A stretch of 64,000 nucleotides of DNA from Candidatus Aerophobetes bacterium Ae_b3b (GTDB lineage Bacteria; Aerophobota; Aerophobia; Aerophobales; AE-B3A): NCBI GenBank assembly GCA_005223085.1, contig NJBP01000002.1:2427-66426 (forward strand), read 5' to 3'. Positions 35,804-62,557 of the stretch are shown here, in pieces. Made by a program: the position numbers and the translations under genes. A model generated the notes under the pieces. That model searched no databases and was not told the origin of the DNA. It worked only from the letters and a program-made list of their open reading frames with translations. The stretch's first letter is position 1. Every line of letters starts with the position of its first letter.

Positions 35804-35867
35804 AAAAAAGGGACGTGATTATTTTTTCTTTTATCAGGGAATTGCTGGATAGCTGAACGCTTACAGC

Positions 35868-36112
35868 TATTTTTCGGTGGAGGGGGGAGTTTCTTTCTCC
35901 TGGGACTCTTCCTCAAGACTCTCCGGCTTTAGTTTACCCTCCGCAATCTCCTTTAAAACCAAGATAGGCAGTTTCTCGTGAGTGTCCTCTAGGGCCCTTT
36001 TATCTTTCTCTTTAACAAGTTGTCTGATTCTTCGAATGGCCAAACGGGTAAGCTCGTATTTATCTTCTATCCCACTTTTACGTAATAAATCATCAGTAGA
36101 GAATTTAATCAG
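35868..36112 (-). CDS. rpoZ: DNA-directed RNA polymerase subunit omega, apparent non-AUG (CTG/ATT) start
   Basis: Manual translation: (L)IKFSTDDLLRKSGIEDKYELTRLAIRRIRQLVKEKDKRALEDTHEKLPILVLKEIAEGKLKPESLEEESQEKETPPSTEK*. Typical omega core, directly downstream of gmk, RBS AAAAGGAG. No ATG/GTG/TTG in frame after the upstream TAA, hence absent from the ORF track. Confidence 0.65.
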
Positions 36113-36135
36113 TTTAAGCTCCTTTTAGCTTGATA

Positions 36136-36765
36136 TCAGTGGTCAAAATCTCTCAATTCTCGCACGGGTACTCTATTCATGCGACAGCGTTCCGCTCTGA
36201 TTATGGCGGTCAAGTCATCCAAAGCTCTATTTATATCGTTGTTTATTATTAAATAATCATAATAAGGCGCATACTCAATCTCTTTTTTTGCCTGTGTTAT
36301 CCTTTCCTTAACCCTCTCGTAATCCTCGGTACGCCGGCTTTTTAACCGTTTTTCTAACTCCTGCCAAGAGGGAGGAAGGAGAAAGATTAGCACCGCCTGA
36401 GGATAGTTTTTCTTGATTTGGGTTCCGCCCTTGACATCAACCTCCAGCACCACATCTTTTTCCGCTTCTATGGCTTTATTTAAAAGATTAGCTGAGGTTC
36501 CGTAAAGTTGCTCATGCACCTTTGCCCATTCCACGAATTTTCGGTCCTCTATCATTTTTTGGAATTCTGTGGGTGAGACAAAGCAATAGTCTACCCCTTC
36601 TATCTCATTCTTACGAGGATGCCGAGTAGTGAAAGATACCGAACAAGTAAATGAGGGTGAGTTTTGGAGAAGTCTTTTGCAGAGGGTAGTTTTGCCCGCT
36701 CCTGAAGGAGCAGAAATAACCACGATTAAACTCTTCTTTTTAAACAAATTTCTCCTTTTATTCAT
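36136..36765 (-). CDS. gmk: guanylate kinase
   Basis: P-loop SAPSGAGKTTL and Gmk family sequence. Confidence 0.9.
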   Translation of the reverse strand: MNKRRNLFKKKSLIVVISAPSGAGKTTLCKRLLQNSPSFTCSVSFTTRHPRKNEIEGVDYCFVSPTEFQKMIEDRKFVEWAKVHEQLYGTSANLLNKAIEAEKDVVLEVDVKGGTQIKKNYPQAVLIFLLPPSWQELEKRLKSRRTEDYERVKERITQAKKEIEYAPYYDYLIINNDINRALDDLTAIIRAERCRMNRVPVRELRDFDH

Positions 36766-36860
36766 AGAAAATGATTTTTCAGGATTTAGAGTTAAGCACC
36801 AGAAACCTAACTAGATTAGCTAAGTTCTAAATTCTCTTTTACTCATAAGTGGTTGGTTAG

Positions 36861-37736
36861 TCATTCGATGTTCTGAACTTCCTCTCTGATTCTTTCTAGA
36901 TCCTCTTTAATTTGGACAACAAGGCGAGAGATAATAAAAGAATTAGCTTTTGCTCCCATGGTGTTAATTTCTCTATGGAGTTCCTGTAGTATAAATCTTA
37001 TTTTTTTCCCCACCGACTCTTTCTGCTGCAAAGTGGTTTGCAACTCGCGTAAATGAGATTGAAATCTTAGCTTTTCCTCGCTGATGTCACCGCGTGAGAT
37101 AAGGAAGGATAGCTCGCGGGCGACCTTTTCCCTATCTTCTCCTAATGCCAAAAGGTTCTTCAGGCTTTCCTTTACCTTCTCTTGATAGAGGTTTTGAGCC
37201 GTGGGGATCTCTTCTTCCAGGTCGGAAAGTCTTTTTTGGATTCTCTTCAGGTACCGAAGAATACTTTGAAGATGTTCTTTTCCCTCCTTTCCCCTCATCT
37301 TGAGAACGTTCTTTAAGGCCTTGGTTAAGGCTTTCTCCAACGTGGTCTCTAAACTCTTCTTGATCTGTGGTTTTCTAGGGGGTGAGATTACACCTCGAAG
37401 TGCTAAAAGATGAGAGAGGGTCACTCTGTCATCTAGCCCTAGGTTCTGGCAAAGCCCAGAAAGGGCATTTTTGTAGGAGGTGACAAGCTCCCGATTTATC
37501 ACTACTTCAGAGAGGAAGGGGGGTTTCCATTTAGCCTCAACATTAAGACTTACTTTTCCCCGCTTAATTTTTTCTCTAACCAAATGCCTAATTTTTTTCT
37601 CCCAGGCAAAAGGAATCGGTTCAGAAGATTTAACTTCTATTTCTAGGAACCGGTGGTTAACTGTGCTCATCTCCACATGGAGATCTACTTCCTTGTTGCT
37701 CTCTCTTCCTTCCCCATACCCGGTCATACTGTACAA
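36861..37736 (-). CDS. yicC: YicC family stress-induced protein
   Basis: MYSMTGYGEG N-terminus and conserved yicC-gmk-rpoZ synteny. Confidence 0.8.
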   Translation of the reverse strand: MYSMTGYGEGRESNKEVDLHVEMSTVNHRFLEIEVKSSEPIPFAWEKKIRHLVREKIKRGKVSLNVEAKWKPPFLSEVVINRELVTSYKNALSGLCQNLGLDDRVTLSHLLALRGVISPPRKPQIKKSLETTLEKALTKALKNVLKMRGKEGKEHLQSILRYLKRIQKRLSDLEEEIPTAQNLYQEKVKESLKNLLALGEDREKVARELSFLISRGDISEEKLRFQSHLRELQTTLQQKESVGKKIRFILQELHREINTMGAKANSFIISRLVVQIKEDLERIREEVQNIE

Positions 37737-37792
37737 TTAAAACGCTCCCCCCCCCGACTAATCATTATTATACCTTGCCCCTCTCCCCTGTC

Positions 37793-37996
37793 AAGAGAAT
37801 CTCGGGACTCTTCCCCTTCGTCGCTGTATATCGACTTTGGATTGTTTCTGCTCGTCTTCTCGTTTCGGGAAAGACGTGAAACTCGTCGCTCCGCTCCTCA
37901 GACATCACGTCTTTCTTCTTCCTCAACTCGAAGACTCGTTAAGGTGGCTGATATAAGGCTCCTTTGGGGAAAGTCCCTCGATACGCGTATAAATCT
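37793..37996. repeat. MITE-like repeat, family A, copy 1 (~205 bp, imperfect TIRs GGGACTCTTCCCC / GGGGAAAGTCCC)
   Basis: Near-identical to 49453-49814 apart from two indels. Intergenic between yicC and folK. Confidence 0.75.
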
Positions 37997-38091
37997 TCTG
38001 AACAGCTTCCCGCAAAAGTTTAAAAGCCCCCTGGCCGATAGATAACCATATAAACTGGGATCCTTGATAAATCTTTCTGATCCTTCTAGTC

Positions 38092-38589
38092 TTAATGACC
38101 TGCATACCCATTCTCCAGGATTTTGTCCACCTGGTGTGAGTCCTTAAGTCCTTTCAGAATCTCCTTCAAGGATTTTCCCAGCACCGGATGAACAAGGTGG
38201 GAATTGATTTCTACCAGCGGTATAAGGGCAAACCTTCTTTTATGTAGATGAGGGTGGGGAACTATGAGGTCGACCTTGTCAACTACTGCATCCTCGTAGA
38301 GCAAAAGATCGAGGTCTATCACCCGGGGGTTCTTCTTTTTTTCTCTGATTCTTCCCATCCTTTTCTCAATTTGGAGTAAGGTATCGAGCAGTTTTTCCGG
38401 GGACTGTTCTGTTTTCCCTTCCAGAACGCAGTTTACAAACCATCTTCCTTCCATTCCCACTGGCTCGGTAAGGTAGAAAGAGGATATTTTCTCTACGGCT
38501 ATCTTCTCTTTGAGGTGATCCAGGGCGACTTTTATATTCTTAAGTCTATCGCCCTTATTTGAACCTAACCCGATATAGACGACTGGCAT
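38092..38589 (-). CDS. folK: 2-amino-4-hydroxy-6-hydroxymethyldihydropteridine pyrophosphokinase
   Basis: VYIGLGSNKGDR N-terminus and HPPK family sequence. Confidence 0.85.
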   Translation of the reverse strand: MPVVYIGLGSNKGDRLKNIKVALDHLKEKIAVEKISSFYLTEPVGMEGRWFVNCVLEGKTEQSPEKLLDTLLQIEKRMGRIREKKKNPRVIDLDLLLYEDAVVDKVDLIVPHPHLHKRRFALIPLVEINSHLVHPVLGKSLKEILKGLKDSHQVDKILENGYAGH

Positions 38590-38652
38590 TTATTTCCTGG
38601 CCTCAAAATATCTCCCACCAAACTTCTCATAATCCCCTGTAGTAAGATACCT

Positions 38653-38985
38653 TCAGCAATCCCCGGGAGAAAGACAGAAAGCGAATTTTATGGCTTGATT
38701 AACTTGACTTATCTTTTCGGCACTTAAAAGACAAACTCTTTCCCTTAGCAGTTCCTTGCGGATAGTAATTATGGTATCTAAGTTTGCAACACACCTTTTA
38801 GGAAGACCATCCTTAGGACCAAGACATACCTCAACAGGTATGTCTCTGATGGTGGTAGTTACCTCTGCCACCGTAACTGCATTTCTTATCGGGTAGGCCT
38901 CATCCCGGGAAAGAAGCACTACGGGACGTTTCCTAATAGGTGAAGGCAGTTCAGCCCACCAGATCTCTCCTCTTTTCATCACCAT
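38653..38985 (-). CDS. type II toxin MazF/PemK-family endoribonuclease
   Basis: RGEIWWAELP...KRPVVLLS PemK signature and ~110 aa length. Confidence 0.75.
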   Translation of the reverse strand: MVMKRGEIWWAELPSPIRKRPVVLLSRDEAYPIRNAVTVAEVTTTIRDIPVEVCLGPKDGLPKRCVANLDTIITIRKELLRERVCLLSAEKISQVNQAIKFAFCLSPGDC

Positions 38986-39233
38986 TCCTCTTTGGTAAGT
39001 GCTGTTAAAGAAGCCTTTTCCCAGGCTATCGATTCACCTATGGTCTCCGGCATTTTTTTATATCCTTCCTCGTATTTTCTGATAAGCTTTTTCATACTTT
39101 TGGACTCTTCCCATAGTTTAACCGCCTGTAAAACAGCTTTACTACGAGTTAATCTCTCCTGCTGCCTGAGCGCCTCCAGTTTGTTGAAATCCTCTTCAGG
39201 AATGCTTATAGCAAATTTCACTACCTTAGTCAT
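38979..39233 (-). CDS. putative RHH/CopG-type antitoxin
   Basis: 84 aa, 7-nt overlap with the MazF-like gene, N-terminal beta-strand/helix pattern (KVVKFAISIPEEDFNKLEAL). Confidence 0.55.
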   Translation of the reverse strand: MTKVVKFAISIPEEDFNKLEALRQQERLTRSKAVLQAVKLWEESKSMKKLIRKYEEGYKKMPETIGESIAWEKASLTALTKEEW

Positions 39234-39402
39234 GAGGCTCTCCTTTGGAAAATATTTTCATACTCTAGTATAACGACATTTTCCCATATGTCAATCCTAT
39301 GTACACGCCTAAGTCAAATGATGACGATGACCTAACCCAAATCACACATTTTACAGCCCACCCTTTATCTGTTAGAATAGAGGTAAATACTTAGTGAACC
39401 AC

Positions 39403-39493
39403 GCCATTGCGAGCGCAAGCGAAGCAATCTCAACCTTCATCAGAGATTGCCACGTCGTCCCGAAGACTTTCGGGACTCCTCGCAATGACAGAA
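39403..39493. repeat. MITE-like repeat, family B (gccATTGCGAG...CTCGCAATgac terminal inverted repeats, internal hairpin)
   Basis: Shares terminal and internal segments with the TIRs flanking the GIY-YIG gene (60774-61183) and with 62441-62500. Confidence 0.6.
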
Positions 39494-39676
39494 GGGAACG
39501 TACTTCACTGAATTTTTACGAATAGAGGGAGGGTTTTTCGGAATGCGCAGAAAGGGGAGGGATGAATGGAAATAGTGTTGGGCGAAACCAAGGACTCAGG
39601 CATTTATGGAAAAAAGAGTGAAGTAACCAGACTCAATGGGATGAGAGCGGGTTGAACAAAACGAGGAGGAAGAGGG

Positions 39677-40876
39677 ATGAAAGTCAGTCCGACATATGAG
39701 CGCGATTTGGAAATTCATTTACACGGGCCGGGCCCGAGTGACGTGCCGGGAGAGGTTTTAAGAGCAATCTCGATGACTACCCTGGGCCACTTAGATTCAG
39801 AATTCATCAGAATAATGGACGAGACCCAGGCCATGTTAAGAATGCTGTATCAAACCGAAAATCGAATGACCATTCCCATTTCCGGCACCGGAAGCTCGGG
39901 CATGGAGACCCTGGTAGCTAATCTCATCGAGCCTCAAGATAGAGTAATGGTGGTGAAAAATGGAGTCTTTGGAGGAAGGATTGCCGATGAAGTATCTCGA
40001 TTTGGGGCGGAAGTGGTACCGATCGATCTAGAATGGGGAACTGTGGTTACCCCTGATGAGGTAAGAGAAGCTTTTTCTAGAAAAAGCTGTCAGGCGCTTT
40101 TCCTGGTACACGCAGAGACCTCTACTGGTGCCCATCAACAACATATGAAAGAAATTGGTGAGGTTGTTCACCAAAATGGCGCCCTATTTCTAGTTGATAC
40201 GGTAACATCTTTAGGAGGGACCGAAGTAAAGATAGATGAGTGGGGGATCGACGCTGCCTACAGTGGAACCCAAAAATGCCTTAGTGTGCCCCCAGGGCTT
40301 TCTCCCATTACGTTAAATGAGAGAGCCATGGAAAAGCTCCGGGGAAGAAAGGTAAGAAGCTGGTATTTTGATTTAGGGATGATCGAGAAGTACTGGAATG
40401 AGGGGCATCAAAGAAAATATCATCATACTGCCCCGGTGAATATGATTTATGCCCTCCATGAAGGGCTCAGGTTAGCCCTAGAAGAAGGGTTTGAGGCAAG
40501 ATTCCAACGCCACCGAAGAAACGCTGCCACCCTTCAGGCTGGTCTTGAAACCTTAGGTTTCACCTACATTGTGAGAAAACAGGACCAAAGACTTCCCATG
40601 CTTCATGCGGTCTACCTTCCCGAGGGAGCAGAAGAAGGCAAACTTTGGGGAGAAATAAGATCGAGTTACCATATTGAGATTGGTGGTGGTCTGGGGAAAT
40701 TCAGTGGAAGGGCCTGGAGAATTGGACTGATGGGTCACTCGTCAACAGAAGACAAAGTATATCGGCTTCTCAATGCTATTGGAGAGGTATTCGAAAAATA
40801 TGGTCTTGTAGGTGATCGAGCCGCCGGTGTTCAAGGTGCCAAAGCTATTTACAAGGACGCAAGAAGGCTGAGGTGA
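39677..40876 (+). CDS. class V aminotransferase (alanine-glyoxylate / serine-pyruvate aminotransferase family)
   Basis: SGTGSSGMET, LFLVDTVTSLGG, YSGTQKCLSVPPG (PLP-Lys region). Confidence 0.8.
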   Translation: MKVSPTYERDLEIHLHGPGPSDVPGEVLRAISMTTLGHLDSEFIRIMDETQAMLRMLYQTENRMTIPISGTGSSGMETLVANLIEPQDRVMVVKNGVFGGRIADEVSRFGAEVVPIDLEWGTVVTPDEVREAFSRKSCQALFLVHAETSTGAHQQHMKEIGEVVHQNGALFLVDTVTSLGGTEVKIDEWGIDAAYSGTQKCLSVPPGLSPITLNERAMEKLRGRKVRSWYFDLGMIEKYWNEGHQRKYHHTAPVNMIYALHEGLRLALEEGFEARFQRHRRNAATLQAGLETLGFTYIVRKQDQRLPMLHAVYLPEGAEEGKLWGEIRSSYHIEIGGGLGKFSGRAWRIGLMGHSSTEDKVYRLLNAIGEVFEKYGLVGDRAAGVQGAKAIYKDARRLR

Positions 40877-40906
40877 TATTTTTGTGGTAATATCCGGTTT
40901 CCATCT

Positions 40907-42337
40907 TCAGTCAGGAAGAATTTTTCCCGGATTGAGGATGTTGTTGGGGTCGAAAAGCTGTTTGATGCCCCGGAAGAGTTTCAGTATTTTCGGGCCCACT
41001 GCTTTTTCGAGGTATTTACTCCTCGTGGCACCAACTCCGTGCTCGCCGGTTATCTGCCCACCCAGGGCAAGAGCGATATCAAAAATCTCCCCACTGATTT
41101 TAGGAATGATTTCCTTCCATTTATCTTCAGGATAATCCTCTTTGAGGATATTAACATGAACATTCCCATCACCTGAATGGCCGAAACAGATGATTGGATA
41201 CTCGTATCTTTCCTGCAGTTTCTTTATCTCACGTAGAAAATCGTTTATCCGGGCTCGAGGAACGACGATGTCCTCCATGTGATTGACTGGGCTTCTCTCC
41301 TTCAGTGCCTCAATGATGGCCCGCCTGGCTTCCCATAATTTCTCCTGAGTGGGACGGTCATCGGCAACCAAAACATCAATGGCATCGTGCTCAAAACAGA
41401 CCTCGCCGACAGTCTCACAGAGTGCTTCCACATCTTCTTTCCGATTTCCATCCAGTTTTATGAGGAGAAAGGCGGCCGCTTCACGTAGAGGGAGTTCTTT
41501 CTTAAGGTATTTCTCACAGGCGAGGAGGGAGTCTTGTTCCATAAACTCAATGGAGGTAGGGAGTATCTGTCGTTTGATAATGGCTGAGACCGTGTCCGCT
41601 GCACCTTGAAATTCATTGAAGGCCACCAATAGGTCTATGGTTACCCTGGGAAGGGGAATGAGACGAAGGATTATCTTGGTTATGATGGCTAAGGTACCCT
41701 CGGAGCCGATGAGAAGCCCGATTAAATCATAACCGGTGACGTTTTTGACAAGTTTCCCGCCCAATTGAATTACTTGACCCGAGGGCAGAACCGCCTCCAG
41801 TCCGCAAACGTAGTCTTTGGTCACTCCGTACTTAACGGCCCGCGGTCCACCAGCGCATTCGGCGACGTTGCCGCCGATAGAGCAGGAGTCCAGGCTGGCC
41901 GGATCCGGCGGATAGAAAAGCCCTTCTCTCTCTACGGCTTCATGGATTTTGCTGGTTATAACACCTGGTTCAACCGTTATCATAAGATTCTTCTTATCAA
42001 TTTCCAGAATTCGGTCCATTTTTTCCAGGGAGAGAACTATCCCCCCGCAAACAGGGACTGCCCCACCGGAGAGACCATAGCCAGCGCCGCGCGGAGTTAC
42101 GGGAATTCTTTTCTCATTGGCGAATTTCATGACTTTTGAGATCTGCTGGACCGTTGTCGCCCTGACAACTACCTCCGGTCGGGCCTTCAGGCCAGGGACC
42201 TCATCGTGGGCATACATCTCCAGCAGATCTGGATCAAGCAAAACCCTATCTTTACCAAATAGACCGGTTAGGAATTCCAGGACCTCATGGTCGACTTTTG
42301 CATACATTTCTAAACCCTCCCCTTGTTGAGGGATCAA
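40907..42337 (-). CDS. FAD-linked oxidase (GlcD / D-lactate dehydrogenase family)
   Basis: FAD_binding_4 region (PRGAGYGLSGGAVP) and C-terminal oxidase domain. Confidence 0.8.
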   Translation of the reverse strand: MIPQQGEGLEMYAKVDHEVLEFLTGLFGKDRVLLDPDLLEMYAHDEVPGLKARPEVVVRATTVQQISKVMKFANEKRIPVTPRGAGYGLSGGAVPVCGGIVLSLEKMDRILEIDKKNLMITVEPGVITSKIHEAVEREGLFYPPDPASLDSCSIGGNVAECAGGPRAVKYGVTKDYVCGLEAVLPSGQVIQLGGKLVKNVTGYDLIGLLIGSEGTLAIITKIILRLIPLPRVTIDLLVAFNEFQGAADTVSAIIKRQILPTSIEFMEQDSLLACEKYLKKELPLREAAAFLLIKLDGNRKEDVEALCETVGEVCFEHDAIDVLVADDRPTQEKLWEARRAIIEALKERSPVNHMEDIVVPRARINDFLREIKKLQERYEYPIICFGHSGDGNVHVNILKEDYPEDKWKEIIPKISGEIFDIALALGGQITGEHGVGATRSKYLEKAVGPKILKLFRGIKQLFDPNNILNPGKILPD

Positions 42338-42501
42338 GTTTACCCACTAATGATGCTCAATGCAGAGTTACTTTGAGTCGTTTATCGATAGAAATCTGTT
42401 TTTTTCGATGGATAAGTGTGGCAGTAGAGAAAGCGAGTGTCAAAGAAGGTTAAAAAATTTCTTTTGGCTACAATGATACGGGACACATTCAGGCAAAAGG
42501 T

Positions 42502-42894
42502 CTACTCAATCTTCACTATTACCTGGCGGTGGCGGGGGCCATCGAACTCACAGAAGTAGATGGACTGCCAGGTGCCCAGGACTAATTGGCCTTTCTCCAC
42601 GAATATAGTTTCAGAAGAGCCAACTAAAGATGCCTTTATATGAGCGGGGGAGTTTCCTTCCCGGTGTTGATAATCACCGCTCCAGGGGATGATCTTATCC
42701 AGTTGATTCAGTATATCTCTTCTCACACTGGGGTCAGCTCCTTCATTGATAAGGATCCCGGCCGTGGTATGAGGAACAAATACCTGGCAGGTCCCCTCTT
42801 CTACCCGGGCCTCTTTTACAATATCCTCTACTTGAGAACTGATGTCGATTAACTCTGACCGGGAATGGGTAGAAAGGGAAAATTTTTTTATCAC
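42502..42894 (-). CDS. YjbQ/UPF0047 family protein
   Basis: Strong similarity in pattern to E. coli YjbQ (HTTAGILINE, PAHIKASL, GTWQSIY). Confidence 0.8.
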   Translation of the reverse strand: MIKKFSLSTHSRSELIDISSQVEDIVKEARVEEGTCQVFVPHTTAGILINEGADPSVRRDILNQLDKIIPWSGDYQHREGNSPAHIKASLVGSSETIFVEKGQLVLGTWQSIYFCEFDGPRHRQVIVKIE

Positions 42895-42895
42895 T

Positions 42896-43363
42896 TTAGC
42901 CTCCTTCTTGTTTCATGAGCTTCTCGGGGGTAGTAATCCTTATGCGGGGATAACCGCTAATCAGATTATAGGCATTTATTCTTCTTTCTACCTGGGTTTT
43001 GACCAGATGTGCAAAATCCCAGCTAACAAATATATCCACTTTGTTTATCACTGCCAGTGCTAGATGTAGAGCATCGTTGAAGGCATTTGGGGGGATGATC
43101 TTTTCCTCGACATACCTTCTAGCTAGTTTCTCGGCCAAGGGGGAGACCTCCAGGGGAGGAAAATCACTAATTAAGGAGAGGATGGCCTCTCTTTTATCTT
43201 TAGTCTCCAGGGCCTTTATTTCATCAATGGTTAACCTTGAGATTATCACCCGGCAATGAGGAATCCGAACCTTCCACCACTGACGAGTGATCCTTCGGCG
43301 CTGCGGCTGGGAGGTCTCGCAGCAAGCAGAAGGAATGGAGGGATCAAGATAAACACTCTTCAT
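42896..43363 (-). CDS. PIN-domain (VapC-like) protein, no cognate antitoxin seen
   Basis: YLDPS N-terminal Asp plus the NDALHLALAVINKVDIFVSWDFAHL C-terminal block typical of PIN nucleases. Confidence 0.5.
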   Translation of the reverse strand: MKSVYLDPSIPSACCETSQPQRRRITRQWWKVRIPHCRVIISRLTIDEIKALETKDKREAILSLISDFPPLEVSPLAEKLARRYVEEKIIPPNAFNDALHLALAVINKVDIFVSWDFAHLVKTQVERRINAYNLISGYPRIRITTPEKLMKQEGG

Positions 43364-43366
43364 AGA

Positions 43367-44236
43367 TTAAAGTAGTCCATAGTCAGCCAGAGCCTTCTCC
43401 AGCCTTTCCTCATTCTCCTTTTTCATCCCATCCAGAGGAAGTCTCCACTCTGGCTCGATCATCCCCAGACGGGCCATGGCTGTCTTTACTGGAAGAGGAT
43501 TGGTCTCTATGAACATAGCCCGGGACAGGGGATATGTCTTGTAGTGAAGCTCCTTTGCTTTGCTGATATTTCTCTTTAAGTAAGCTTCCACCATTTGAGA
43601 CATCTCTCCGGGTAAGATATTCGCTAGCACTGATATTACTCCCACTCCACCAAGAGATAGGATGGGCAAAGTATGAGAATCATTTCCGGAAAGGACAGAA
43701 AAGTTAGGGTCGGATAAAGACATAATAGTTGATACCTGGTCCATATTACCACTCGCTTCTTTAATGCCTGCTATGTGGGTGAGCTTGCTTAATTTAGCCA
43801 CCAATGCTGCATCAATATTGACTCCAGTGCGTGAAGGGACATTATAGATAATAATAGGAAGGCCAATGGCCTCTAATTTCCGGTAATGAGCTTCCAGACC
43901 CTTAGGGGTGGGTTTATTGTAATAGGGAGTGATTACCAGGGCAGCATCTGCACCGGCTTCTTTGGCAAATTGAGTTAACTCTTCGGCCTCATGGGTGCTG
44001 TTGGAACCAGTCCCGGCGATTACCGGAACTCGATGATTGACCTCTTTCACAGTTATCTCTACCACTCGTTCGTGTTCATCAAAGGACAAAGTAGGTGACT
44101 CCCCTGTGGTTCCACAAGGAACTATTCCATCCACTCCTTTTTCCAGACAAAACCCGATGAGCTTGCGGAAGCTATCCTCATCTACCTCCCCCCCTTTGAA
44201 AGGGGTAACTATGGCTACATGACATCCTTTGAACAT
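43367..44236 (-). CDS. dapA: 4-hydroxy-tetrahydrodipicolinate synthase
   Basis: GTTGESPTLS motif, Lys region (IAGIKEASGN). Confidence 0.9.
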   Translation of the reverse strand: MFKGCHVAIVTPFKGGEVDEDSFRKLIGFCLEKGVDGIVPCGTTGESPTLSFDEHERVVEITVKEVNHRVPVIAGTGSNSTHEAEELTQFAKEAGADAALVITPYYNKPTPKGLEAHYRKLEAIGLPIIIYNVPSRTGVNIDAALVAKLSKLTHIAGIKEASGNMDQVSTIMSLSDPNFSVLSGNDSHTLPILSLGGVGVISVLANILPGEMSQMVEAYLKRNISKAKELHYKTYPLSRAMFIETNPLPVKTAMARLGMIEPEWRLPLDGMKKENEERLEKALADYGLL

Positions 44237-46398
44237 TGGCTAACCTCCCCTTCCCATTTTCCCTCATATACCACTTCTGCTTTACCTTCCAGGGAAACTT
44301 GAGTAAAATTATGGGTGCCTGATTTTTGAAAATAGACTTTCAGATCTCCCCCGCCGGTTTTTATCTTCACCGGAGAATTAAGGGCGTAGACTAGATTTGC
44401 TGCTAAAGCTGTAGCTACTGCTCCGGTACCACAACTTAGAGTCTCTGCCTCTACCCCTCTTTCGTAGGTTCTCATCCTCACGGTATCATCCTTTATTTCT
44501 GCAAAGTCAACATTGGTGCCCTCTGGCTGAAACTTTCCATGGTATCTTATTCGGGATCCCATTTTGGGAAGATCAATCTTTTCTACCTCCGGGACAAAGA
44601 GAACAAAGTGAGGTACTCCCGTATCCAGAAAATGGCCTGTGTAGGAGCCATCCCCCAGGTTTATCTCTAGGTTTAACTGAGAAATGGAAGGATCTTTCAT
44701 TCTTATGCGGACCCGATTCTTTTTTACCTGGGAGAAAATCTTTCCCGATAAGGTCTCAAAAGAACATTTTTCCCCCACAATTTTCTTAAGGTGGGCAAAT
44801 CTAGCTATGCATCGGGCTCCATTTCCACACATTGCCGGTTCGCTCCCGTCAGGATTGAAAATGCGCATTTTAAAATCAGCTACCCGAGATTTTTCCAGAA
44901 GTAGAACTCCATCTGCTCCAATGCCGATCTTTCTGGGACATATGGTTCTGGAAAATTCGGGTCCATTCTTGATAAACTGGGAGCGGTTATCAATGACGAT
45001 AAAGTCATTGCCACTTCCCTGTAACTTGGTGAAAGGGATGGGACCAGAAAGAGCTTTCTTTTCCCCCAGTGGGCGAGCTGAGCAAGATTTAGAACTCGAG
45101 GGAGAACCTCTAAAGGAGGAGAATAATTCCTCAGGGATGGACTCCTCCTTAATCAGATCTTTATAAGTTTCCCTCTCTCGAATTATCCACCACTGATCCT
45201 TCTTTACCAACACTTCTGCTGGTCTGGGTCGAGCATTGTAAGTAAAGCTCATGCTAAAGCAATAGGCTCCGGTATCCATGATAGCCAGATACTCTCCTTC
45301 CGTGATTTGAGGAAGAGGTCTTTCCCGAGCAAAGAAATCTCCCGACTCACAGACCGGACCTACTACATCTACCACTTCAGGGGAACCCGCCCCATGAGGT
45401 TCTTTTAGTTTTTTTATCTGGTGATAGGCTCCGTAAAGGGATGGTCTAATGAGATCGTTCATCCCCGCATCTACAATGATAAATCTCTTTTTCCCTCTAT
45501 TCTTTTTATAAAGTACCTGAGTGATTAAGACCCCGGCCGGTCCCACCAGGAATCTTCCTGGCTCAAGGATTAATTTTGCCCCGGTTTTCTTGATCAATGG
45601 ATAGATTTTTTCTGCTAGATCCATGATGTTTAAAGGGAGCTTTCCTTCCTCATAGCTAATGCCAAATCCCCCTCCCATATCCACATATTTTAGGTTCAGT
45701 CCCTTTTCTTTAAGCAGTTCAAGAAAATCCAGGATCTTTTCCAGAGCCCTAAGATAAGGCTGAAGGCTGGTTATCTGGGAGCCGAGATGAAAATGAATCC
45801 CTACTGGCTCCAAGAGGGGTGATTTTTTAACCTGGGAGTATAGTTTCTCTGCCTCATCAAAGTCAAGACCGAACTTATTTTCCCTCTTGCCGGTGGTGAT
45901 GTAGCGGTGAGTTTTCGGATCCACGTCGGGATTTATGCGTAAGGATATTTTGGCACTCTGGTTCAATTGGCGGCTGAGCTTTTCTATTAATCTTAACTCT
46001 CCTGGTGACTCCACGTTAAAGATAAAGATGTTCTCTCTTAGGGCGTATTCTATCTCCTCTTTATTTTTTCCGGGTCCCGCAAAAACTATTTTTTGAGGAG
46101 GGAATCCAGCCTGAAGCGCTTTGTATAGCTCTCCTCCCGAGAGAATGTCTGCTCCCGCACCTTCAGTAGCCAGAATTCGGCAAAGGGTAAGATTGGCATT
46201 GGCCTTTACTGAGTAGCAAATTAAGGGGGAGAGTTTGCTGAAGGCGTGGCAGACTTCCCGGTAACCATCGATTAGGCTATTATAGCTGTAAAGATAAAGA
46301 GGGGTCCCTACCTCCTCAGCCACCTGGCCAACTGGTACCTCTTCGCAGAAAAGCTGCCTGGCCTTATAGTGAAAATGGCTTTTTCTATTAGCTGGCAA
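44215..46398 (-). CDS. lysA-dapF: fusion protein: diaminopimelate decarboxylase (N) + diaminopimelate epimerase (C)
   Basis: N-terminal 430 aa has the Orn/DAP decarboxylase fold-III PLP signature (YSVKANANL, GGGFGISY, EPGRF, CESGD). C-terminal 290 aa has DapF motifs (MQGSGNDFIVID, FNPDGSEPAMCGNGARC, GTGAVA). Confidence 0.8.
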   Translation of the reverse strand: MPANRKSHFHYKARQLFCEEVPVGQVAEEVGTPLYLYSYNSLIDGYREVCHAFSKLSPLICYSVKANANLTLCRILATEGAGADILSGGELYKALQAGFPPQKIVFAGPGKNKEEIEYALRENIFIFNVESPGELRLIEKLSRQLNQSAKISLRINPDVDPKTHRYITTGKRENKFGLDFDEAEKLYSQVKKSPLLEPVGIHFHLGSQITSLQPYLRALEKILDFLELLKEKGLNLKYVDMGGGFGISYEEGKLPLNIMDLAEKIYPLIKKTGAKLILEPGRFLVGPAGVLITQVLYKKNRGKKRFIIVDAGMNDLIRPSLYGAYHQIKKLKEPHGAGSPEVVDVVGPVCESGDFFARERPLPQITEGEYLAIMDTGAYCFSMSFTYNARPRPAEVLVKKDQWWIIRERETYKDLIKEESIPEELFSSFRGSPSSSKSCSARPLGEKKALSGPIPFTKLQGSGNDFIVIDNRSQFIKNGPEFSRTICPRKIGIGADGVLLLEKSRVADFKMRIFNPDGSEPAMCGNGARCIARFAHLKKIVGEKCSFETLSGKIFSQVKKNRVRIRMKDPSISQLNLEINLGDGSYTGHFLDTGVPHFVLFVPEVEKIDLPKMGSRIRYHGKFQPEGTNVDFAEIKDDTVRMRTYERGVEAETLSCGTGAVATALAANLVYALNSPVKIKTGGGDLKVYFQKSGTHNFTQVSLEGKAEVVYEGKWEGEVSQCSKDVM

Positions 46399-47779
46399 TG
46401 GGATTTTCTCCTTCCTCCAGTTTCTCCCTGGCCAGTTTTATCTGTCTGGCCAGAGACTTTTTTCCGGTACCCCCGGTTGATTCCTTATTAAAAACAGATT
46501 CTTCCAGCTTTATCCTTTGGAAAACATCGGCCTCAAAAAGAGAAGAAATCTTTTGATAGTCCTTCAAGGCTAGATCCTCAAAACACTTATTTTCCTTTAA
46601 ACAGTGTTTAACCAATTTTCCCACCATTCCGTGAGCTTCTCTGAAAGGAACGCCTTTCTCTACCAGATAATCAGCCAGGTCCGTAGCCGCGAAAAAGCCC
46701 TGTTGGGCCTGTTTTCTCATATTCTCATGGTTTAGCTTTATCTTACCTATCATCCTGGGGTACAGTTTTAAACATCGCTTGATAATCTTCACCGCTTCAA
46801 ACAAAGAAGATTTGTCTTCCTGTAGATCTCGATTATAAGAGAGGGGAAGAGCCTTCATGGTGGTGAGAAGAGAAAAAAGATCCCCATAAACTCTGGCCGT
46901 TTTTGCCCGAGTGAGTTCGGCCACATCAGGATTCTTTTTCTGCGGCATGAGACTGGAGCCGGTGGTAAAGGCATCACTTATTTCAACAAAGGAGAAGGCA
47001 GGAGATGACCAGAGGATGAGATCCTCTGAGAGACGGGAAAGATGCATCATTAAAAGAGCCACACAACATAGAAATTCAATAATATAATCACGGTCACTCA
47101 CGGTGTCCATACTGTTCTTGGTAATGAGGGGAAAATTTAAAAGCCTGGCCACATAGGCTCTATCAATGGGCAAAGACGTTCCCGCCAGAGCCCCTACCCC
47201 CAGGGGAAGGACATTGACTCGGACATAGCAGTCTTTTAGCCGTAGTTTATCCCTTTGTAGCATCCAAAAATATGCCAGAAGGTGGTGAGAGAAAAAAACT
47301 GGCTGGGCATATTGTAGGTGCGTATAGCCGGGTAGGATAACCTGCCTGTTTTTTTCGGCAAATTCAAGGATCACCCTTTGGAAATTAGATATAAGATGGA
47401 GGATTTCACTTATTTCCTCTCTCAAGAAAAGTCTTTCATCCAGGGCTATCTGGTCATTTCTGGATCTTGCCGTGTGAAGTTTTTTGCCAGCCTCCCCGGC
47501 TCTTCTTATTACCTCCTCCTCTATAGCCATATGAATGTCTTCTTTTCCAGTGAAGTCAAGCTTTCCCTTATCTAAGTCTTTTTTTATCTCTTCCAGGGCC
47601 AGGATGATCTTTTGAGCCTCCTTTTCCTCGATGATTCCCACCTTGGAGAGCATTTTGACATGAGCAATGCTCCCGATTATATCGTGGGGGTAGAGTTTTC
47701 TATCTACGTCAATAGAGGAGGTGAAGTCCTTCACTAACTCATCGGTCTCCTCACTGAATCTTTCGGCCCAGAGGCTCAT
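46388..47779 (-). CDS. argH: argininosuccinate lyase
   Basis: Fumarate-lyase signature GSSLMPQKKNPD and ArgH-like N-terminus. Confidence 0.9.
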   Translation of the reverse strand: MSLWAERFSEETDELVKDFTSSIDVDRKLYPHDIIGSIAHVKMLSKVGIIEEKEAQKIILALEEIKKDLDKGKLDFTGKEDIHMAIEEEVIRRAGEAGKKLHTARSRNDQIALDERLFLREEISEILHLISNFQRVILEFAEKNRQVILPGYTHLQYAQPVFFSHHLLAYFWMLQRDKLRLKDCYVRVNVLPLGVGALAGTSLPIDRAYVARLLNFPLITKNSMDTVSDRDYIIEFLCCVALLMMHLSRLSEDLILWSSPAFSFVEISDAFTTGSSLMPQKKNPDVAELTRAKTARVYGDLFSLLTTMKALPLSYNRDLQEDKSSLFEAVKIIKRCLKLYPRMIGKIKLNHENMRKQAQQGFFAATDLADYLVEKGVPFREAHGMVGKLVKHCLKENKCFEDLALKDYQKISSLFEADVFQRIKLEESVFNKESTGGTGKKSLARQIKLAREKLEEGENPIAS

Positions 47780-47795
47780 AAAAATATTCCCTTAT

Positions 47796-48017
47796 TTATC
47801 TATGGCAAGGTGCACAGCTTGGTGCTCGGCAGGTAGAACAGCTACTCGTTCCACCTAGTGTGCCTTCTTTGGTTCTCCCGCTGATGAATCGAGGAAGAAG
47901 TTTTTTCAGTTGGGAGCTACCGCATTTTGCGCATTTAAGTTCATTTTCCTTACCCAGATTTACCAAGCGGGTAAACTCTTCCCCGCAACTGCCACATTTG
48001 TATCGATATAAAGGCAT
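47796..48017 (-). CDS. FmdB-family zinc-ribbon protein
   Basis: YRYKCGSCGEEF...CAKCGS CxxC-x-CxxC, 73 aa. Confidence 0.7.
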   Translation of the reverse strand: MPLYRYKCGSCGEEFTRLVNLGKENELKCAKCGSSQLKKLLPRFISGRTKEGTLGGTSSCSTCRAPSCAPCHR

Positions 48018-48167
48018 CTTAACCTACCTCTTCGGGCTTTCCCTCTCTATTAGCGCAATCTGGTGCTTAAGTTTAGTATAATTCGGTGGAGCTGTCAAAT
48101 TGACTCTCTTAGAAAAATTGCTTATTATGGTTTAGTGAGCTTATTGGAAACCAAAGTTTTTGAATGA

Positions 48168-49451
48168 TTGAAAAAAATGAGGAAAAGATTAACTTTAAGG
48201 TATAAAGACAAGGAGATTGAGGTAAAAATTCCCCTGGGGAATCTTATGTATGTTATAAAGCCAGAGGATCTTCCTGGACTAGAGAATGAGCAAAAATCTA
48301 TTAAGCACTCGCTAGAGAATCCCATAGGCTCAGCTCCTCTATCTCAACAAGTGAAAAAAGGAATGAAGGTGGTTATCATGGCAGATGATATTACTCGACC
48401 CACACCCCGAGAGAGGATTCTTCCGGCCCTCCTGGATGGATTAAATGAATCTGGCATACTTGATAGAGATATCACGGTGTTGATTGCTCTGGGAACTCAT
48501 CGTTATATGAGCAAAGAGGAGATAGAGCACTGTTTTGGGAAAAGGCTTACGGAAAGAGTAACCATCTTAAACCATGAGTGGAAGGCTAAAGCTAATCTTG
48601 TCTACCTGGGCTCAACTCCCAGGGGGATACCCGTCTCCATTAATAAGATCGCCCATGAGGCTGATTATTTAATTGGGGTAGGCAGTATTGTTCCTCATTC
48701 TCTTGCTGGTTATGGAGGAGGCGCTAAGATAGTCCAGCCTGGAATTTGTTCTTGGGAGACCACTGGGAAAACGCATCTTCTGGCGGTAGAAAGGAATGAC
48801 TTTCTTGAAGTTGCAGGAAATCCGGAAAATGAGGCCAGGTTGGAGATGGAGGAGGTGGCAAGAATTGCTGGATTAAATTTCATTGTTAATGTGGTACTCA
48901 ATGGCAAAGGAAGAATAGTCAAGGTAGTTTCCGGTGACCCAGTGAAGGCCCACAGAGAGGGAGTAAAAGTAGCCAGGAAAGTTTATGAGCAAAAAATACC
49001 CGAGTTAGCTGATGTGATTATAGCAAGTGCCTATCCAGCCAATATAGACTATTGGCAGGGTGCCAAGGCCCTCTCTTATGCCCAACACGGCCTTAGAGAA
49101 AAGGGCACGGTTATCCTTCTAGCTTCCTTCCCTGATGGCATCTCTCCCACGCACTCTGAGTTTGAAAAATACGGAGATAGGCCATATGAGGAGATAAAGC
49201 GGCTAATTAAAGAAAATAAGATTCAGGATCTCGTCTGTGCCTCTATTTTAGTTTGTCATGCGCTGGTTAGAGATCGCTGTGAAGTTATCTGCGTTTCGGA
49301 GGGACTGTCTATAGAACAAAAGGAAAGGCTTGGCTTCAGGCACGCCGATAGCCTGGATGAGGCATGGGAAATGGTCTTATCAAAGTATGGAAAAGGGGTG
49401 AAGATAGGGCTTATAGACCATGGAGGTGATATGCTGCCCAGACCTGGTTAA
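48168..49451 (+). CDS. lactate racemase (LarA)-like nickel-pincer enzyme family protein
   Basis: LarA_N hallmark DITRPTP, ALGTHR, GVGSIVPHSLAGYGGGAK. Confidence 0.65.
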   Translation: MKKMRKRLTLRYKDKEIEVKIPLGNLMYVIKPEDLPGLENEQKSIKHSLENPIGSAPLSQQVKKGMKVVIMADDITRPTPRERILPALLDGLNESGILDRDITVLIALGTHRYMSKEEIEHCFGKRLTERVTILNHEWKAKANLVYLGSTPRGIPVSINKIAHEADYLIGVGSIVPHSLAGYGGGAKIVQPGICSWETTGKTHLLAVERNDFLEVAGNPENEARLEMEEVARIAGLNFIVNVVLNGKGRIVKVVSGDPVKAHREGVKVARKVYEQKIPELADVIIASAYPANIDYWQGAKALSYAQHGLREKGTVILLASFPDGISPTHSEFEKYGDRPYEEIKRLIKENKIQDLVCASILVCHALVRDRCEVICVSEGLSIEQKERLGFRHADSLDEAWEMVLSKYGKGVKIGLIDHGGDMLPRPG

Positions 49452-49452
49452 G

Positions 49453-49814
49453 AATATCTCGGGACTCTTCCCCTTCGTCGCTGTATATCGACTTTGGATT
49501 GTTTCTGCTCGTCTTCTCGTTGCCTGCGGCACCTTAACGGCCGGGAAAGACGTGAGGATCTCGAGGGGGGAAACATCCCCCCTCGACGCTACGCTGCTCC
49601 CCCCAATCCAAAAACAGGCAGAGCACGTCGCTCCGCTCCTCAGACAACACGTCTTTCTTTTCCTCAACTATTCTTGAGGGGGAAAATATTCCCCCTCAAC
49701 GCTCGCTTCGCTCACTGCTCCCCCTAAATTCGAAGCCTGCAGAGCTGACTCGTTAAGGTGGCTGATATAAGGCTCCTTCGGGGAAAGTCCCTCGATACGC
49801 GTATAAATATCTTC
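49453..49814. repeat. MITE-like repeat, family A, copy 2 (~360 bp, with two internal palindromic insertions)
   Basis: Same termini as 37793-37996. The extra segments contain near-perfect hairpins (CTCGAGGGGGGAAACATCCCCCCTCGA; CTTGAGGGGGAAAATATTCCCCCTCAA). Confidence 0.75.
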
Positions 49815-49873
49815 CTGGTACTGGTAGTTTAGCCCGTTTTTGAAAAAGCTAAAGAGCGAAAGGAGAAAATGGT

Positions 49874-50905
49874 TTGAAGGCGATTTTAAAAAATAAGGAG
49901 GCCGTAGGTTTTGATCTTGAGGAGATACCTGTACCTGAGCCCAAGTCCAAAGAGGTTCTGGTTAAAGTGAAAGCTGCTGCTATATGCGGCTCGGATTTGA
50001 AAATTTTTAAGTGGATACCCTGGTGTAAAAATGTGGTTAAGTCTTTGCCCTTTATTCCAGGGCATGAATGTGCCGGTGAGGTGGTGGAGGTTGGAAAGGA
50101 GGTTAAAAGGATAAAAGTAGGGGATAAAGTAGCAGCGGAAACCCATATTACCTGTGGAAAATGCTGGCAATGTCGGCATGACCGCTCTCACACCTGCCAG
50201 AATATGGAACTTTTTGGTCACACTGTAAACGGCTGTTTTGCTGAATACTGTATAATACCCCTGGTCTCTACCAGGAGGGTGCCTGAGGATCTACCTTTTG
50301 AGAAGGGATGTCTTCTCGAACCAATGGGAATCCCCTTGAGGGCTGTATACGAAGGAGAAGTAGAGGGAGATTCAGTAGTGGTTATAGGATGTGGGCCTAT
50401 CGGGCAATTTGCGGTAGGGATTTCGAGGATAAAAGGAGCCGAAAAAATTATCGCTACCGATATTAACGAGAAAAGGCTAAACCTAGCCAGGAGAATGGGA
50501 GCGACTCATCTGGTTAATGCTCAAAAAGAATCTCTCGTAGATAGAGTTTTATCCCTGACCAACGGAAATGGAGCAGGAGTGATAATCGAGGCTTCGGGTG
50601 ATGCTCAAGCCTTAGAGAAAGCATTTAATTACTTAAGGACTGGGGGAAAGTTATTTATGATAGGTCATCCTGAGGAGCTTTTAAAGATTGATGGATCTCC
50701 TCAGATTATTCTCAAGGAAGCCAGAATCAGAGGACTGTTCGGAAGGGAAATATGGAGAACCTGGGAGATAGCCGAGAATCTACTTTCCGCGGGAAAACTC
50801 AATATAGATCCTATAATTACTCATAAATTTTCCTTAGAAGATTTCGAGAAGGCCTTCGATATAGCAATTTCGGGCCAAGGATGCAAGATACTTCTCATTC
50901 CTTGA
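49874..50905 (+). CDS. zinc-dependent medium-chain alcohol/polyol dehydrogenase
   Basis: GHECAGEVVEVG zinc signature and a structural-zinc Cys cluster (CGKCWQCRHDRSHTC). Confidence 0.85.
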   Translation: MKAILKNKEAVGFDLEEIPVPEPKSKEVLVKVKAAAICGSDLKIFKWIPWCKNVVKSLPFIPGHECAGEVVEVGKEVKRIKVGDKVAAETHITCGKCWQCRHDRSHTCQNMELFGHTVNGCFAEYCIIPLVSTRRVPEDLPFEKGCLLEPMGIPLRAVYEGEVEGDSVVVIGCGPIGQFAVGISRIKGAEKIIATDINEKRLNLARRMGATHLVNAQKESLVDRVLSLTNGNGAGVIIEASGDAQALEKAFNYLRTGGKLFMIGHPEELLKIDGSPQIILKEARIRGLFGREIWRTWEIAENLLSAGKLNIDPIITHKFSLEDFEKAFDIAISGQGCKILLIP

Positions 50906-50926
50906 TAGCTTTAAAGGAGTAATTCA

Positions 50927-51874
50927 ATGGCTGTTCTTATTACGGGAGGTTACGGACAATTAGGGTCCTGGCTTACCTACCAGTTTGCTGGGGTGGGAAA
51001 AGAGGTTATAGTTCTCGATGTGGTAGGTAAAGACCTTGATTATCTTAAGGAAATAAAAGATAAGATTAGATTTGTTCGGGCAAGTGTGCTCGATTTCCCA
51101 AAACTGGTGGAAGTATTTATCCGGTACAAGGATAAAATTGAGGGAATTATACATACAGTAGCGATAACTGCCGACCCCTCTCTTGAGGGAAACCCTCACC
51201 AGGCTCTTATGATAAATCTCACCGGGACAGTCAATATGCTCGAGCTGGCTAGACTCTTTAAAATTAAGAAATTTCTCTTTGCTAGCTCAGGAGCAGTATA
51301 TGGAGAGGTAAAAGACAACCCTTCTGAACTTACTCATCCTCTTCATCCTAGTGACTTATATGGCGCCAGCAAGGTGGCCGGGGAGCTCATTGGTCAGCAA
51401 TATGAGCATCACTATGGTCTTGATTTTCGGAGTGCTCGTCTTTACTTTTTCTTTGGTCCGGGAAGGCTTCCTTCCCAGCAAACTGAGCTGTTTAAAAATC
51501 TTCTAGGGCCTCTTGAGGGTCTTCCTGGTCTAAAACTGGAGAAGGGTGCCGATCAGAAACTGGGATTTACTTACGTTAAAGATATCGCCTATGGAACTTA
51601 TCTTCTCTACCAGGCTGAAAATCTCAAGCACAAATCGGTAAATATCTCTTCCGAACAACCGATTTCTTTCCTCCAGATGGTGAGCTTAGCTCAAAAGTAT
51701 AGTGATAAACCTACTCAGGTGGAGATAGGCCCGGGCAAGCTCTTTCCTCGAGGAGAGACTTTGGATATCTCTCTTGCCAAAGAGGAGCTTGGATTTTATC
51801 CCCAATATACTGTGGAGGAAGGTATGCGCGAATACGCCCGGTGGGTAAAGAAAAATGCGATGAGGAAGGATTAG
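50927..51874 (+). CDS. NAD-dependent epimerase/dehydratase (extended SDR)
   Basis: ITGGYGQLGSWL Rossmann motif and YGASK catalytic motif. Confidence 0.8.
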   Translation: MAVLITGGYGQLGSWLTYQFAGVGKEVIVLDVVGKDLDYLKEIKDKIRFVRASVLDFPKLVEVFIRYKDKIEGIIHTVAITADPSLEGNPHQALMINLTGTVNMLELARLFKIKKFLFASSGAVYGEVKDNPSELTHPLHPSDLYGASKVAGELIGQQYEHHYGLDFRSARLYFFFGPGRLPSQQTELFKNLLGPLEGLPGLKLEKGADQKLGFTYVKDIAYGTYLLYQAENLKHKSVNISSEQPISFLQMVSLAQKYSDKPTQVEIGPGKLFPRGETLDISLAKEELGFYPQYTVEEGMREYARWVKKNAMRKD

Positions 51875-51887
51875 AGAGGACGATAAG

Positions 51888-62440: not shown

Positions 62441-62528
62441 ACAAGCTCCACAATCCCATAAGATTGCCACGGTTGTTTTCAACAACCTCGCAATGACAGC
62501 GACGGAGGGGAAGAGTCCCGAGATATCC
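62441..62528. repeat. adjacent repeat fragments: family B right end (..CCTCGCAATGACAG) followed by a solo family A terminal repeat (GGGGAAGAGTCCCGAGAT)
   Basis: Sequence identity to the ends of the elements at 60774-61183 / 39403-39493 and to the left TIR of 37793 / 49453 (inverted). Confidence 0.6.
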
Positions 62529-62557
62529 TTGACAAATCTGTCTTGATAACGTAAATT
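62529..62557 (+). promoter_or_regulatory. sigma70-type promoter (TTGACA-17-TAAATT) driving riboswitch-cobU-cobT
   Basis: Consensus -35 and good -10 with 17-bp spacer, about 15 nt before the riboswitch. Confidence 0.55.

Follow-up and report, generated by a model that had tools for sequence, protein, structure and literature searches.

Correia elements (CREE/NEMIS) of Neisseria are short, non-coding inverted-repeat hairpins, which occur in many copies in intergenic DNA, both in full and in internally deleted forms; their ends adjoin or contribute promoter hexamers, they can affect transcription and termination of neighbouring genes, and they encode no transposase. ERIC/IRU and BOX/RUP elements of enterobacteria and streptococci are imperfect palindromes, whose long variants arise by insertion of segments at fixed sites and whose short variants arise by deletion. 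Small repeats of such kind have rarely been described outside cultured model bacteria. IS91/ISCR elements have no terminal inverted repeats and keep one end fixed at CAAG/GAAC (CTTG/GTTC), the other end being variable in one-ended events. Here we analyze an intergenic repeat in a stretch of 64,000 nt (contig NJBP01000002.1, positions 2,427 to 66,426, of Candidatus Aerophobetes bacterium Ae_b3b), hereafter called the window, in whose coordinates all features are given. We consider it fairly probable (about 0.6) that this repeat represents a family, not described before, of structured repeats of intergenic DNA that are non-autonomous, which resembles MITEs (miniature inverted-repeat transposable elements) and REP elements in the broad sense and has a promoter-proximal target. 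Targeted full-text literature searches yielded no description of such a repeat family in the lineage of uncultured sediment bacteria labelled Aerophobetes.

Copies in the window and empty sites in relatives

An earlier note on this DNA had called two full copies and one isolated terminal repeat, and all three are real and lie where it had placed them. Copy 1 occupies 37799..38026 on the plus strand (left end, LE, at 37799-37816; right edge ~38026) and has a basic interior of 161 nt, copy 2 occupies 49456..49822 (+) and is a long form with a 318-nt interior, both interiors being of the sequence type called A below, and the solo left end lies inverted, on the minus strand, at 62492..62533. The identity of >95% that had been noted between the two copies holds, although it does not extend over one run of ~200 bp and is instead split into three collinear blocks of 75 nt (96%), 34 nt (97%) and 62 nt (98%). 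Likewise, the isolated repeat is present, but its size had been given as 18-26 nt, whereas it really comprises ~42 nt of LE plus flank motif (62492-62533). It is a truncated copy, similar to the 45-nt solo LE at the yicC site of the related loci L074 and L075 (85% YicC amino acid identity, ~87% nucleotide identity), and comparable LE-only remnants were found at L040, L044, L060 and L061 as well. The 17-mer TCTCGGGACTCTTCCCC has exactly three exact matches in the window, at 37800(+), 49457(+) and 62507(-); with up to three mismatches 4 matches were obtained, where 0.23 would be expected by chance and 100 shuffles all gave fewer than 4. A profile search of the window revealed no further diverged copies, so that it holds only these three.

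Evidence for mobility comes from orthologous sites in related genomes. Between the larA-like gene and the Zn-dependent alcohol dehydrogenase (ADH) gene, window positions 49454-49821 (368 nt) are missing from every orthologous spacer examined (~10 loci); these spacers measure ~62-70 nt. For example, the nucleotide sequence of L146 matches the window at 99.35% identity over 2.8 kb, yet lacks 49454-49821; in L146, L147-L153 and L155-L156 this segment is replaced by GATTCAAACTT or a one-base variant of it. In L154 GACCAAACTT is in place, the ADH gene is degraded and the spacer of 321 nt contains no element. A search for an exact-protein record of the window ADH found none. Between folK and yicC, L066 (99.3% and 98.1% identical on the two sides) lacks window 37797-38061 and carries 34 unrelated nt instead, and the site is empty in L071 to L073 (93-96% YicC amino acid identity). 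The same basic copy as in the window is present in L076 (99%), a long copy with both of the G-modules described below in L069 (98%), a truncated copy with a new 27-nt hairpin in L067 and L070 (98%), and the solo LE in L074 and L075. At a third site, ~54690-54700 of the window, L031 carries a copy and the window has none. Furthermore, L010 and L056 carry a type-A copy nested in the tail of a copy of the type found at L027.

A recent gain of the repeat is supported: near-identical genomes lack it at two of the three window sites, and one element sits inside another. The earlier note had offered as its alternative a structured regulatory RNA family, and had named as decisive for it that only these copies exist and are conserved in position. 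This was checked and is not the case, and the presence/absence polymorphism contradicts an RNA family that is fixed in position, although a mobile element may still act at the RNA level. In being short, dispersed, non-coding and polymorphic in presence at orthologous sites the repeat behaves as a MITE does. Structural turnover of intergenic DNA is very fast between genomes that are 98-99% identical. Gene content differs between relatives, too: compared with window 47790-53450, the syntenic MAG contig L031 has neither copy 2 nor any part of the larA-like gene (window ~48216-49846), and the FGGY kinase gene (51888-53441) is missing from it as well.

In order to follow the family beyond the window, the LE 19-mer ATCTCGGGACTCTTCCCCT was scanned exactly against 185,579 species-representative genomes. 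Sixty-five loci matched, ~59 of which lie in six related metagenome-assembled genomes (MAGs); the label is Candidatus Aerophobetes or 'bacterium' for four of these and 'uncultured Clostridia' for one. Another five or six loci are chance matches in unrelated phyla. The repeat is dispersed, with tens of copies per genome, and its description as multi-copy, non-coding, structured and recently gained is supported; units are 90-420 nt long and share no conserved open reading frame (ORF). The exact scan misses a subfamily with the variant left end ATCTCGGGGACTAGGCCCCC, observed at L045:~6250-6490 and L056:1084-1125, and the family is therefore larger than counted. Since the search is biased towards LE, the apparent lack of copies consisting of the right end (RE) only allows no conclusion; the idea that only LE solos exist, as evidence for 5'-truncation, was rejected, because RE-only matches turned out to be complete copies with the variant LE GGGACTAGGCCCCC or contig ends.

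Many of the 19-mer loci are located at contig ends, where a dispersed repeat would be expected to lie; copies evidently break MAG assemblies. In one MAG contig, L051 (JAUWXE010000106.1, coverage 722), which is 99.2% identical to window 34727-38002, the sequence beyond the right core of copy 1 is not that of the window but a flank in common with L001. Either the assembly was joined through the repeat, or the rearrangement is real. Copies are ~93% identical within a genome and ~89% identical between genomes, and syntenic L031 DNA is 81-89% identical to the window at the nucleotide level. Set against the divergence of L031 (11-19%), the divergence of the copies within and between genomes fits continuing turnover or constraint, not a single old burst.

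Anatomy of the unit and turnover of its interior

The architecture of the unit was derived by orienting all 19-mer loci and dissecting 36 complete copies. From left to right it consists of the flank motif (G)TCAAGAAT, LE ATCTCGGGACTCTTCCCC and after it TYCGTCGCTGTAT, an interior that varies from 0 to 318 nt, the arm GGGGAAAGTCCC, RE TCGATACGCGTATAAATCTTCTAAATACTAATACTTTCCTGGTACTA and once more TCAAG. The conserved RE comprises ~65 nt and ends with ...CCTGGTACTA. Consequently, the sequence that had been quoted earlier as the full element is too short: on the left the family reaches ~9 nt further, into the TCAAGAAT-like motif, and on the right the boundary had been set 45-50 nt short, because the conserved RE continues past the arm that pairs with LE. 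The imperfect inverted repeats that had been described do exist, with 17-18 nt and 76-78% complementarity, but they are not terminal, the right arm being located 45-50 nt inside the right end. In copy 1 this arm lies at 37966-37982 (+) and pairs with LE; the right core TCGATACGCGTATAAATCT (37978-37996, +) is followed by a diverged right frame to ~38026. In copy 2 an internal deletion has shortened the right frame, and the terminal A-TCAAG is missing. The end repeats are the outermost of three nested inverted repeats, and the unit, variable interior and LE included, therefore folds as one long imperfect hairpin. Predicted folding energies amount to -63.5 kcal/mol for the minus strand (z -3.2) and -58.6 kcal/mol for the plus strand of copy 1, and to -156.9 kcal/mol (z -4.1) for the minus strand of copy 2.

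Several unrelated interior sequence types were found, all of which are hairpins, type A being the type of the window. An interior form of 34 nt is explained by deletion between CTTTGG direct repeats, and the hairpin-less 'minimal' form by deletion between CCCTC or TCG repeats at the hairpin foot. The longer copy had been said to contain two extra, nested segments with G/C-run hairpins; the hairpin-bearing pair is confirmed, but the total is four. On the plus strand of copy 2 these are a 20-nt segment (49522-49541), which is a twin mini-hairpin module, a 70-nt segment (49556-49625), called G/C-hairpin module 1 (hairpin 49561-49586), a 60-nt segment (49670-49729), called G/C-hairpin module 2 (hairpin 49674-49699), and a 12-nt segment (49736-49747) that is grouped with module 2 (49670..49747). 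Both G/C-run hairpins have perfect 11-bp stems and 4-nt loops.

Alignment of 17 type-A copies unveiled the extra segments as recurrent nested modules, in keeping with their earlier description as nested insertions. The G5-6/C5-6 hairpin module of 60-90 nt occurs at two sites in type-A copies, both of which are filled in copy 2, the module 1 site being filled in some copies and empty in others; L015 and L020 have the appearance of recombinants of module 1 with module 2. The 20-nt module was found at four different sites, only inside type-A copies. It reads CCGTTAAGG + GCCGCAGGC on the minus strand of copy 2 and ACC-GNAA-GGT GCC-GNAA-GGC in relatives, forming on the minus-sense strand two 3-bp hairpins with GCAA, GUAA or GAAA caps. 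Altogether, interiors turn over fast by microhomology deletions, loss down to LE only, gain and loss of modules and swaps of interior type at one locus. The 27-nt hairpin of the truncated yicC-site copies, CCCCGTTAAATAGATTACTTAACGGGG (L067:~1400-1520 and L070:~690-806), has repeated CGAG on both sides and may be another tiny nested module. In a further member, L027:316-681, the interior of 275 nt is more than a simple hairpin and folds with about -114 kcal/mol on either strand; this locus gave no Rfam match at gathering thresholds.

Target motif, integration and strand-level signals

At three empty sites a T(C/T)AA(G/A) motif pre-exists right before the LE junction (GTCAAGAA, GGTTAAGA and GATCAAAG); at the two that correspond to copies 1 and 2 it has the form T(C/T)AAGA. 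Since the element-free L066 already carries GTCAAGAA, the left flank motif of copy 1 (GTCAAGAGA, 37790..37798, +) belongs to the target. Almost throughout the family LE abuts a TCAAGAA motif of the general type T(C/T)AAG(A)(A), which reads TTCTTGA(C) on the other strand and constitutes the -35 box of a sigma-70-type promoter in ~40% of the copies. TTGAC was found within 14 nt of LE in 28 of 54 non-redundant left flanks, and 21 of these 28 have TAnnnT at a spacer of 16-18 nt (shuffles: mean 2.5, maximum 8); the -10 signal is specific to this spacing, other spacings giving 0-6. In 42 of 55 cases the left-neighbour ORF is directed away from LE.

The reverse complement of the copy 1 flank motif supplies the -35 box TTGACA of the adjoining yicC promoter (TTGACA-16 nt-TATAAT, 12/12 consensus; 37767..37794, minus strand, -35 37794->37789), which serves yicC (36861-37736, minus strand, with YicC Pfam domains). 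This promoter is intact in element-free relatives, whose empty site reads TTCTTGACA-N17-TATAAT. The possibility that the element donates the -35 box is ruled out by the full promoter of the empty site; rather, the element lands beside -35 boxes. The solo LE adjoins a promoter on the plus strand (TTGACA-17 nt-TAAATT, 10/12 consensus; 62529..62557), which reads into a cobalamin riboswitch (62559-62743, +) and cobU (62777-63340), its predicted start being located just upstream of the riboswitch. Copy 2 adjoins a stop codon and no promoter: its left flank motif GTTAAGAAT (49447..49455, +) overlaps the TAA of the larA-like gene (49449-49451). An inward promoter in the right frame was considered as well and rejected, because in TTGATA followed by TAGTAT/TATTTA either the spacing or the last base is wrong, and the promoter was not called by the scan. 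We attribute the bias in position and orientation to target choice plus survival of those insertions that spare the promoter.

An alternative explanation of the promoter link is that the repeat does not move at all and is a regulatory module upstream of promoters, i.e. a protein-binding palindrome (TATCTCGGGAC-TCTT-CCCCTCGATA) next to the -35 box that is homogenised by gene conversion. The minimal form is indeed a 25-bp imperfect palindrome directly upstream of the -35 box, solos retain LE next to promoters, and the differing interior types at orthologous loci imply recombination between copies. However, the conserved unit of 90-420 nt is far above operator size, about half of the copies are without TTGAC or a -10 partner, copy 2 was gained beside a stop codon where there is no promoter, one copy is nested in another, the flanking genes are functionally unrelated, and near-identical strains keep the predicted promoters without the element. 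We regard this explanation as highly improbable.

For the mobile repeat that we favour, the following course of events can be proposed. The element would integrate at a TCAAGAAT-like motif with LE joined precisely, and as the insertion would take place just upstream of the -35 hexamer, the promoter would survive; no function need then be assumed to account for where the copies lie and for their 3:1 bias in orientation. Integration would usually leave a direct repeat of 6-9 nt and sometimes lose target on the RE side, and the copies would then swap interiors by recombination through their conserved ends. If the hairpin is active, it would probably work on the strand that is co-directional with the downstream gene, as a hairpin in the 3'-untranslated region (3'-UTR) or a read-through barrier before the next promoter. 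The tight link to the -35-like motif offers a natural case for studying possible promoter targeting without destruction, and a possible insulation of transcription units by the hairpin. An RE-LE circle junction, if formed, would read GGTACTA-TCAAGAAT-ATCTCGGG.

With respect to integration, direct repeats of 6-9 nt at fixed positions were found in eight copies, and in several copies both repeats have non-consensus bases in common (e.g. TCAAGAAGT, TCAAGTA, TAAGGT); judged by these flank sequences, a short target duplication is favoured. The earlier note had recommended a search for target-site duplications, and the outcome is mixed: flanks are weakly more similar within copies than between them, whereas the two datable insertions of the window lost target.

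Several results weigh against the favoured reading. The direct-repeat signal is weak, with 5.68 matches within copies versus 5.29 between copies (permutation p = 0.005), and one copy has a duplication of 26-28 nt instead. The insertion of copy 2 brought in 368 nt at the loss of 11 nt of target, and that of copy 1 brought in ~230 nt at the loss of 34 nt of target and includes ~35 nt of filler. The window shows no enrichment of the exact motif TTCTTGAC. At the true right terminus there is no inverted repeat, ...CCTGGTACTA being without similarity to LE, so that inverted repeats at both true ends, which characterise MITEs, are missing. Copies within a genome differ by ~7%, which speaks against a very recent burst, and the census was seeded on the exact LE 19-mer, by which RE-only remnants and diverged subfamilies are under-sampled. 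Furthermore, no autonomous partner was identified by Pfam among the ~48 window ORFs, the ORFs after LE in LE-only loci are all ends of housekeeping genes and include no transposase, recombinase or reverse transcriptase, and an all-against-all comparison over ~350 kb of flanks unveiled no repeated ORFs near the copies. The cognate transposase with matching ends that the note had suggested looking for was thus not found, nor did a limited search find a RAYT. Of the proposed miniature transposable element, the recently gained, multi-copy and structured character is retained, whereas its bounding by terminal inverted repeats and its transposase are not.

Precise LE junctions, target loss on the RE side and non-inverted termini keep an LE-anchored single-strand mechanism in play. 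Mobilisation would then proceed via a single-stranded intermediate anchored at LE, by a rolling-circle HUH enzyme (IS91/ISCR or IS200/IS605-like) or by RNA-mediated target-primed insertion. One precise end beside a short target (CAAG/CTTG) and a variable other end are the pattern expected of such insertion, and (T)CAAG adjoins LE in nearly every copy as well as at each of the three empty sites. In three independent events for which the empty site is known, LE is joined precisely and the RE side varies, with losses of 11 nt (copy 2), 34 nt (copy 1) and 28 nt, the latter in the solo insertion of L074 (~45 nt); the true termini are not inverted repeats, truncated copies keep LE, and the hairpin is asymmetric between strands. 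However, no HUH or reverse-transcriptase gene was seen in the window ORFs, in LE-only loci or in the flanks of copies, and most complete copies have a precise RE ending with GGTACTA, followed by a short direct repeat, for which integration at a staggered cut is the better fit. Moreover, the apparent excess of LE-only copies is biased by the LE-seeded search, and solos may survive simply because LE adjoins an essential -35 box. Such a mechanism appears doubtful to us. Little credence is likewise given to a bolder combination, a promoter-seeking mobile hairpin, in which a single-stranded intermediate (HUH-type or RNA-templated) would join LE to CTTGA(C), regenerate the -35 box and place a read-through barrier upstream, the 20-nt twin GNRA module being a separate inserting micro-module.

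The family could also be a functional RNA element in the first place, on the strand that runs with the downstream gene: a movable 3'-UTR hairpin or barrier to transcription set just ahead of the next promoter, or a small RNA present in many copies. Selection would then act on RNA structure, with mobility being secondary. Of 27 copies, 24 have the better fold on the minus-sense strand (in type A by 5-18 kcal/mol), which runs in the direction of the gene downstream of LE, stem variants are G-U versus A-C in a ratio of 12:1 on this strand and 1:9 on its complement, and two compensatory pairs occur in stems. The loops of the 20-nt module are GNRA loops (GCAA, GUAA or GAAA) on the minus-sense strand only, very different interiors all fold as hairpins, in 18 of 28 cases the upstream neighbour has the same direction, and the elements are at least as conserved between genomes as syntenic coding DNA. 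On the other hand, unpaired columns exhibit a transition bias in the same direction (11 vs 4), so that mutation or base composition may account for the excess of G-U; the ratios 12:1 and 11:4 differ non-significantly, with an estimated, not computed, p of about 0.3. As proof of RNA selection, the asymmetry in stems is weakened by this control. Asymmetric folding is largely limited to type A, i.e. to one lineage, and both compensatory pairs stem from one related pair of MAGs. Consequently, given the bias in unpaired columns and the restriction of the fold asymmetry to type A, selection at the level of RNA or single-stranded DNA is only suggestive.

An RNA function is also disfavoured by the persistence of hairpin-less minimal forms and solos, by the orientation of copy 2 opposite to both neighbours, and by near-identical strains that manage without the element at the same loci. 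The scan does not support the main hairpin as an intrinsic terminator: it has no U-tract and no terminator-like site at its base on either strand, and the only matches of the terminator scan form a weak internal site inside G-module 1. Rfam (15; gathering and permissive thresholds; window, copy 2 and ten loci) returned nothing relevant for the element, the best match on copy 2 having E = 0.56; in the window it detected only two cobalamin riboswitches and one tRNA. Altogether, we consider a primary RNA function unlikely.

Neighbourhood and comparison with known systems

The window probably spans the chromosomal replication origin: dnaA is located at 32018-33361(+), within 31779-33361, nearly all genes to the left of it are on the minus strand, and the GC skew shifts from about -0.15 to positive at ~31-34 kb. 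To the left, a large minus-strand cluster (640-26483) comprises sulfatases, ATP sulfurylase, phosphodiesterases and three ABC sugar-type transporters, as well as tandem arylsulfotransferase paralogues (3267-4376 and 4386-5621), which are the source of repeats D1 and D3. Beside folK, the neighbour of copy 1, lies a MazF/PemK toxin gene (38653-38985, minus strand), which overlaps an upstream ORF of 84 amino acids (38979-39233), a probable antitoxin. A 727-amino-acid ORF at 44215-46398(-) combines a diaminopimelate-decarboxylase-type PLP domain with two DAP-epimerase domains and looks like a LysA-DapF fusion. The second cobalamin riboswitch (58206-58428, minus strand) is located upstream of a string of TonB-dependent receptor, TonB-C and TPR genes (53455-58023, minus strand).

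Sequence similarity links the Aerophobetes repeat to none of the known systems compared here. It shares with REP/BIME/REPIN elements, which are tied to RAYT (HUH Y1), the extragenic location, the palindromic and mosaic structure, the high copy number and strand-specific hairpins, furthermore the frequent position between convergent or co-directional genes and the lack of classical terminal inverted repeats or target duplications. In contrast, the REP unit is a palindrome of 20-40 nt with a foot tetranucleotide of the GTAG type, whereas the unit found here measures 90-420 nt and has an asymmetric, non-palindromic right end of 65 nt. The likeness to IS91 consists in LE abutting (T)CAAG, which most copies have at a distance of 2-4 nt from LE and which is already there in the empty sites, and in the irregular RE side at datable insertions. 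However, IS91 neither duplicates nor deletes target and encodes a Y2 transposase, whereas here 2-4 variable nt separate CAAG from LE and short direct repeats flank many copies, which counts against insertion without duplication.

With Correia elements the repeat has in common that it forms intergenic hairpin repeats with deleted forms and promoter-adjacent ends and encodes no transposase. Correia elements, however, carry inverted repeats of 26 bp at each true terminus and duplicate a TA target; here, the right arm is set back by 45-50 nt from the right end, the target is TCAAGAAT-like, there is no sequence similarity, and the host belongs to an uncultured lineage. The site-specific gain and loss of modules is of the same kind as in ERIC and BOX elements. 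Although there is no sequence relationship to these, and the modules are of a different make (a 20-nt twin mini-hairpin at four sites and G5/C5 modules of 60-70 nt), the Aerophobetes repeat differs from them above all in being strongly tied to one flank motif and to -35 boxes.

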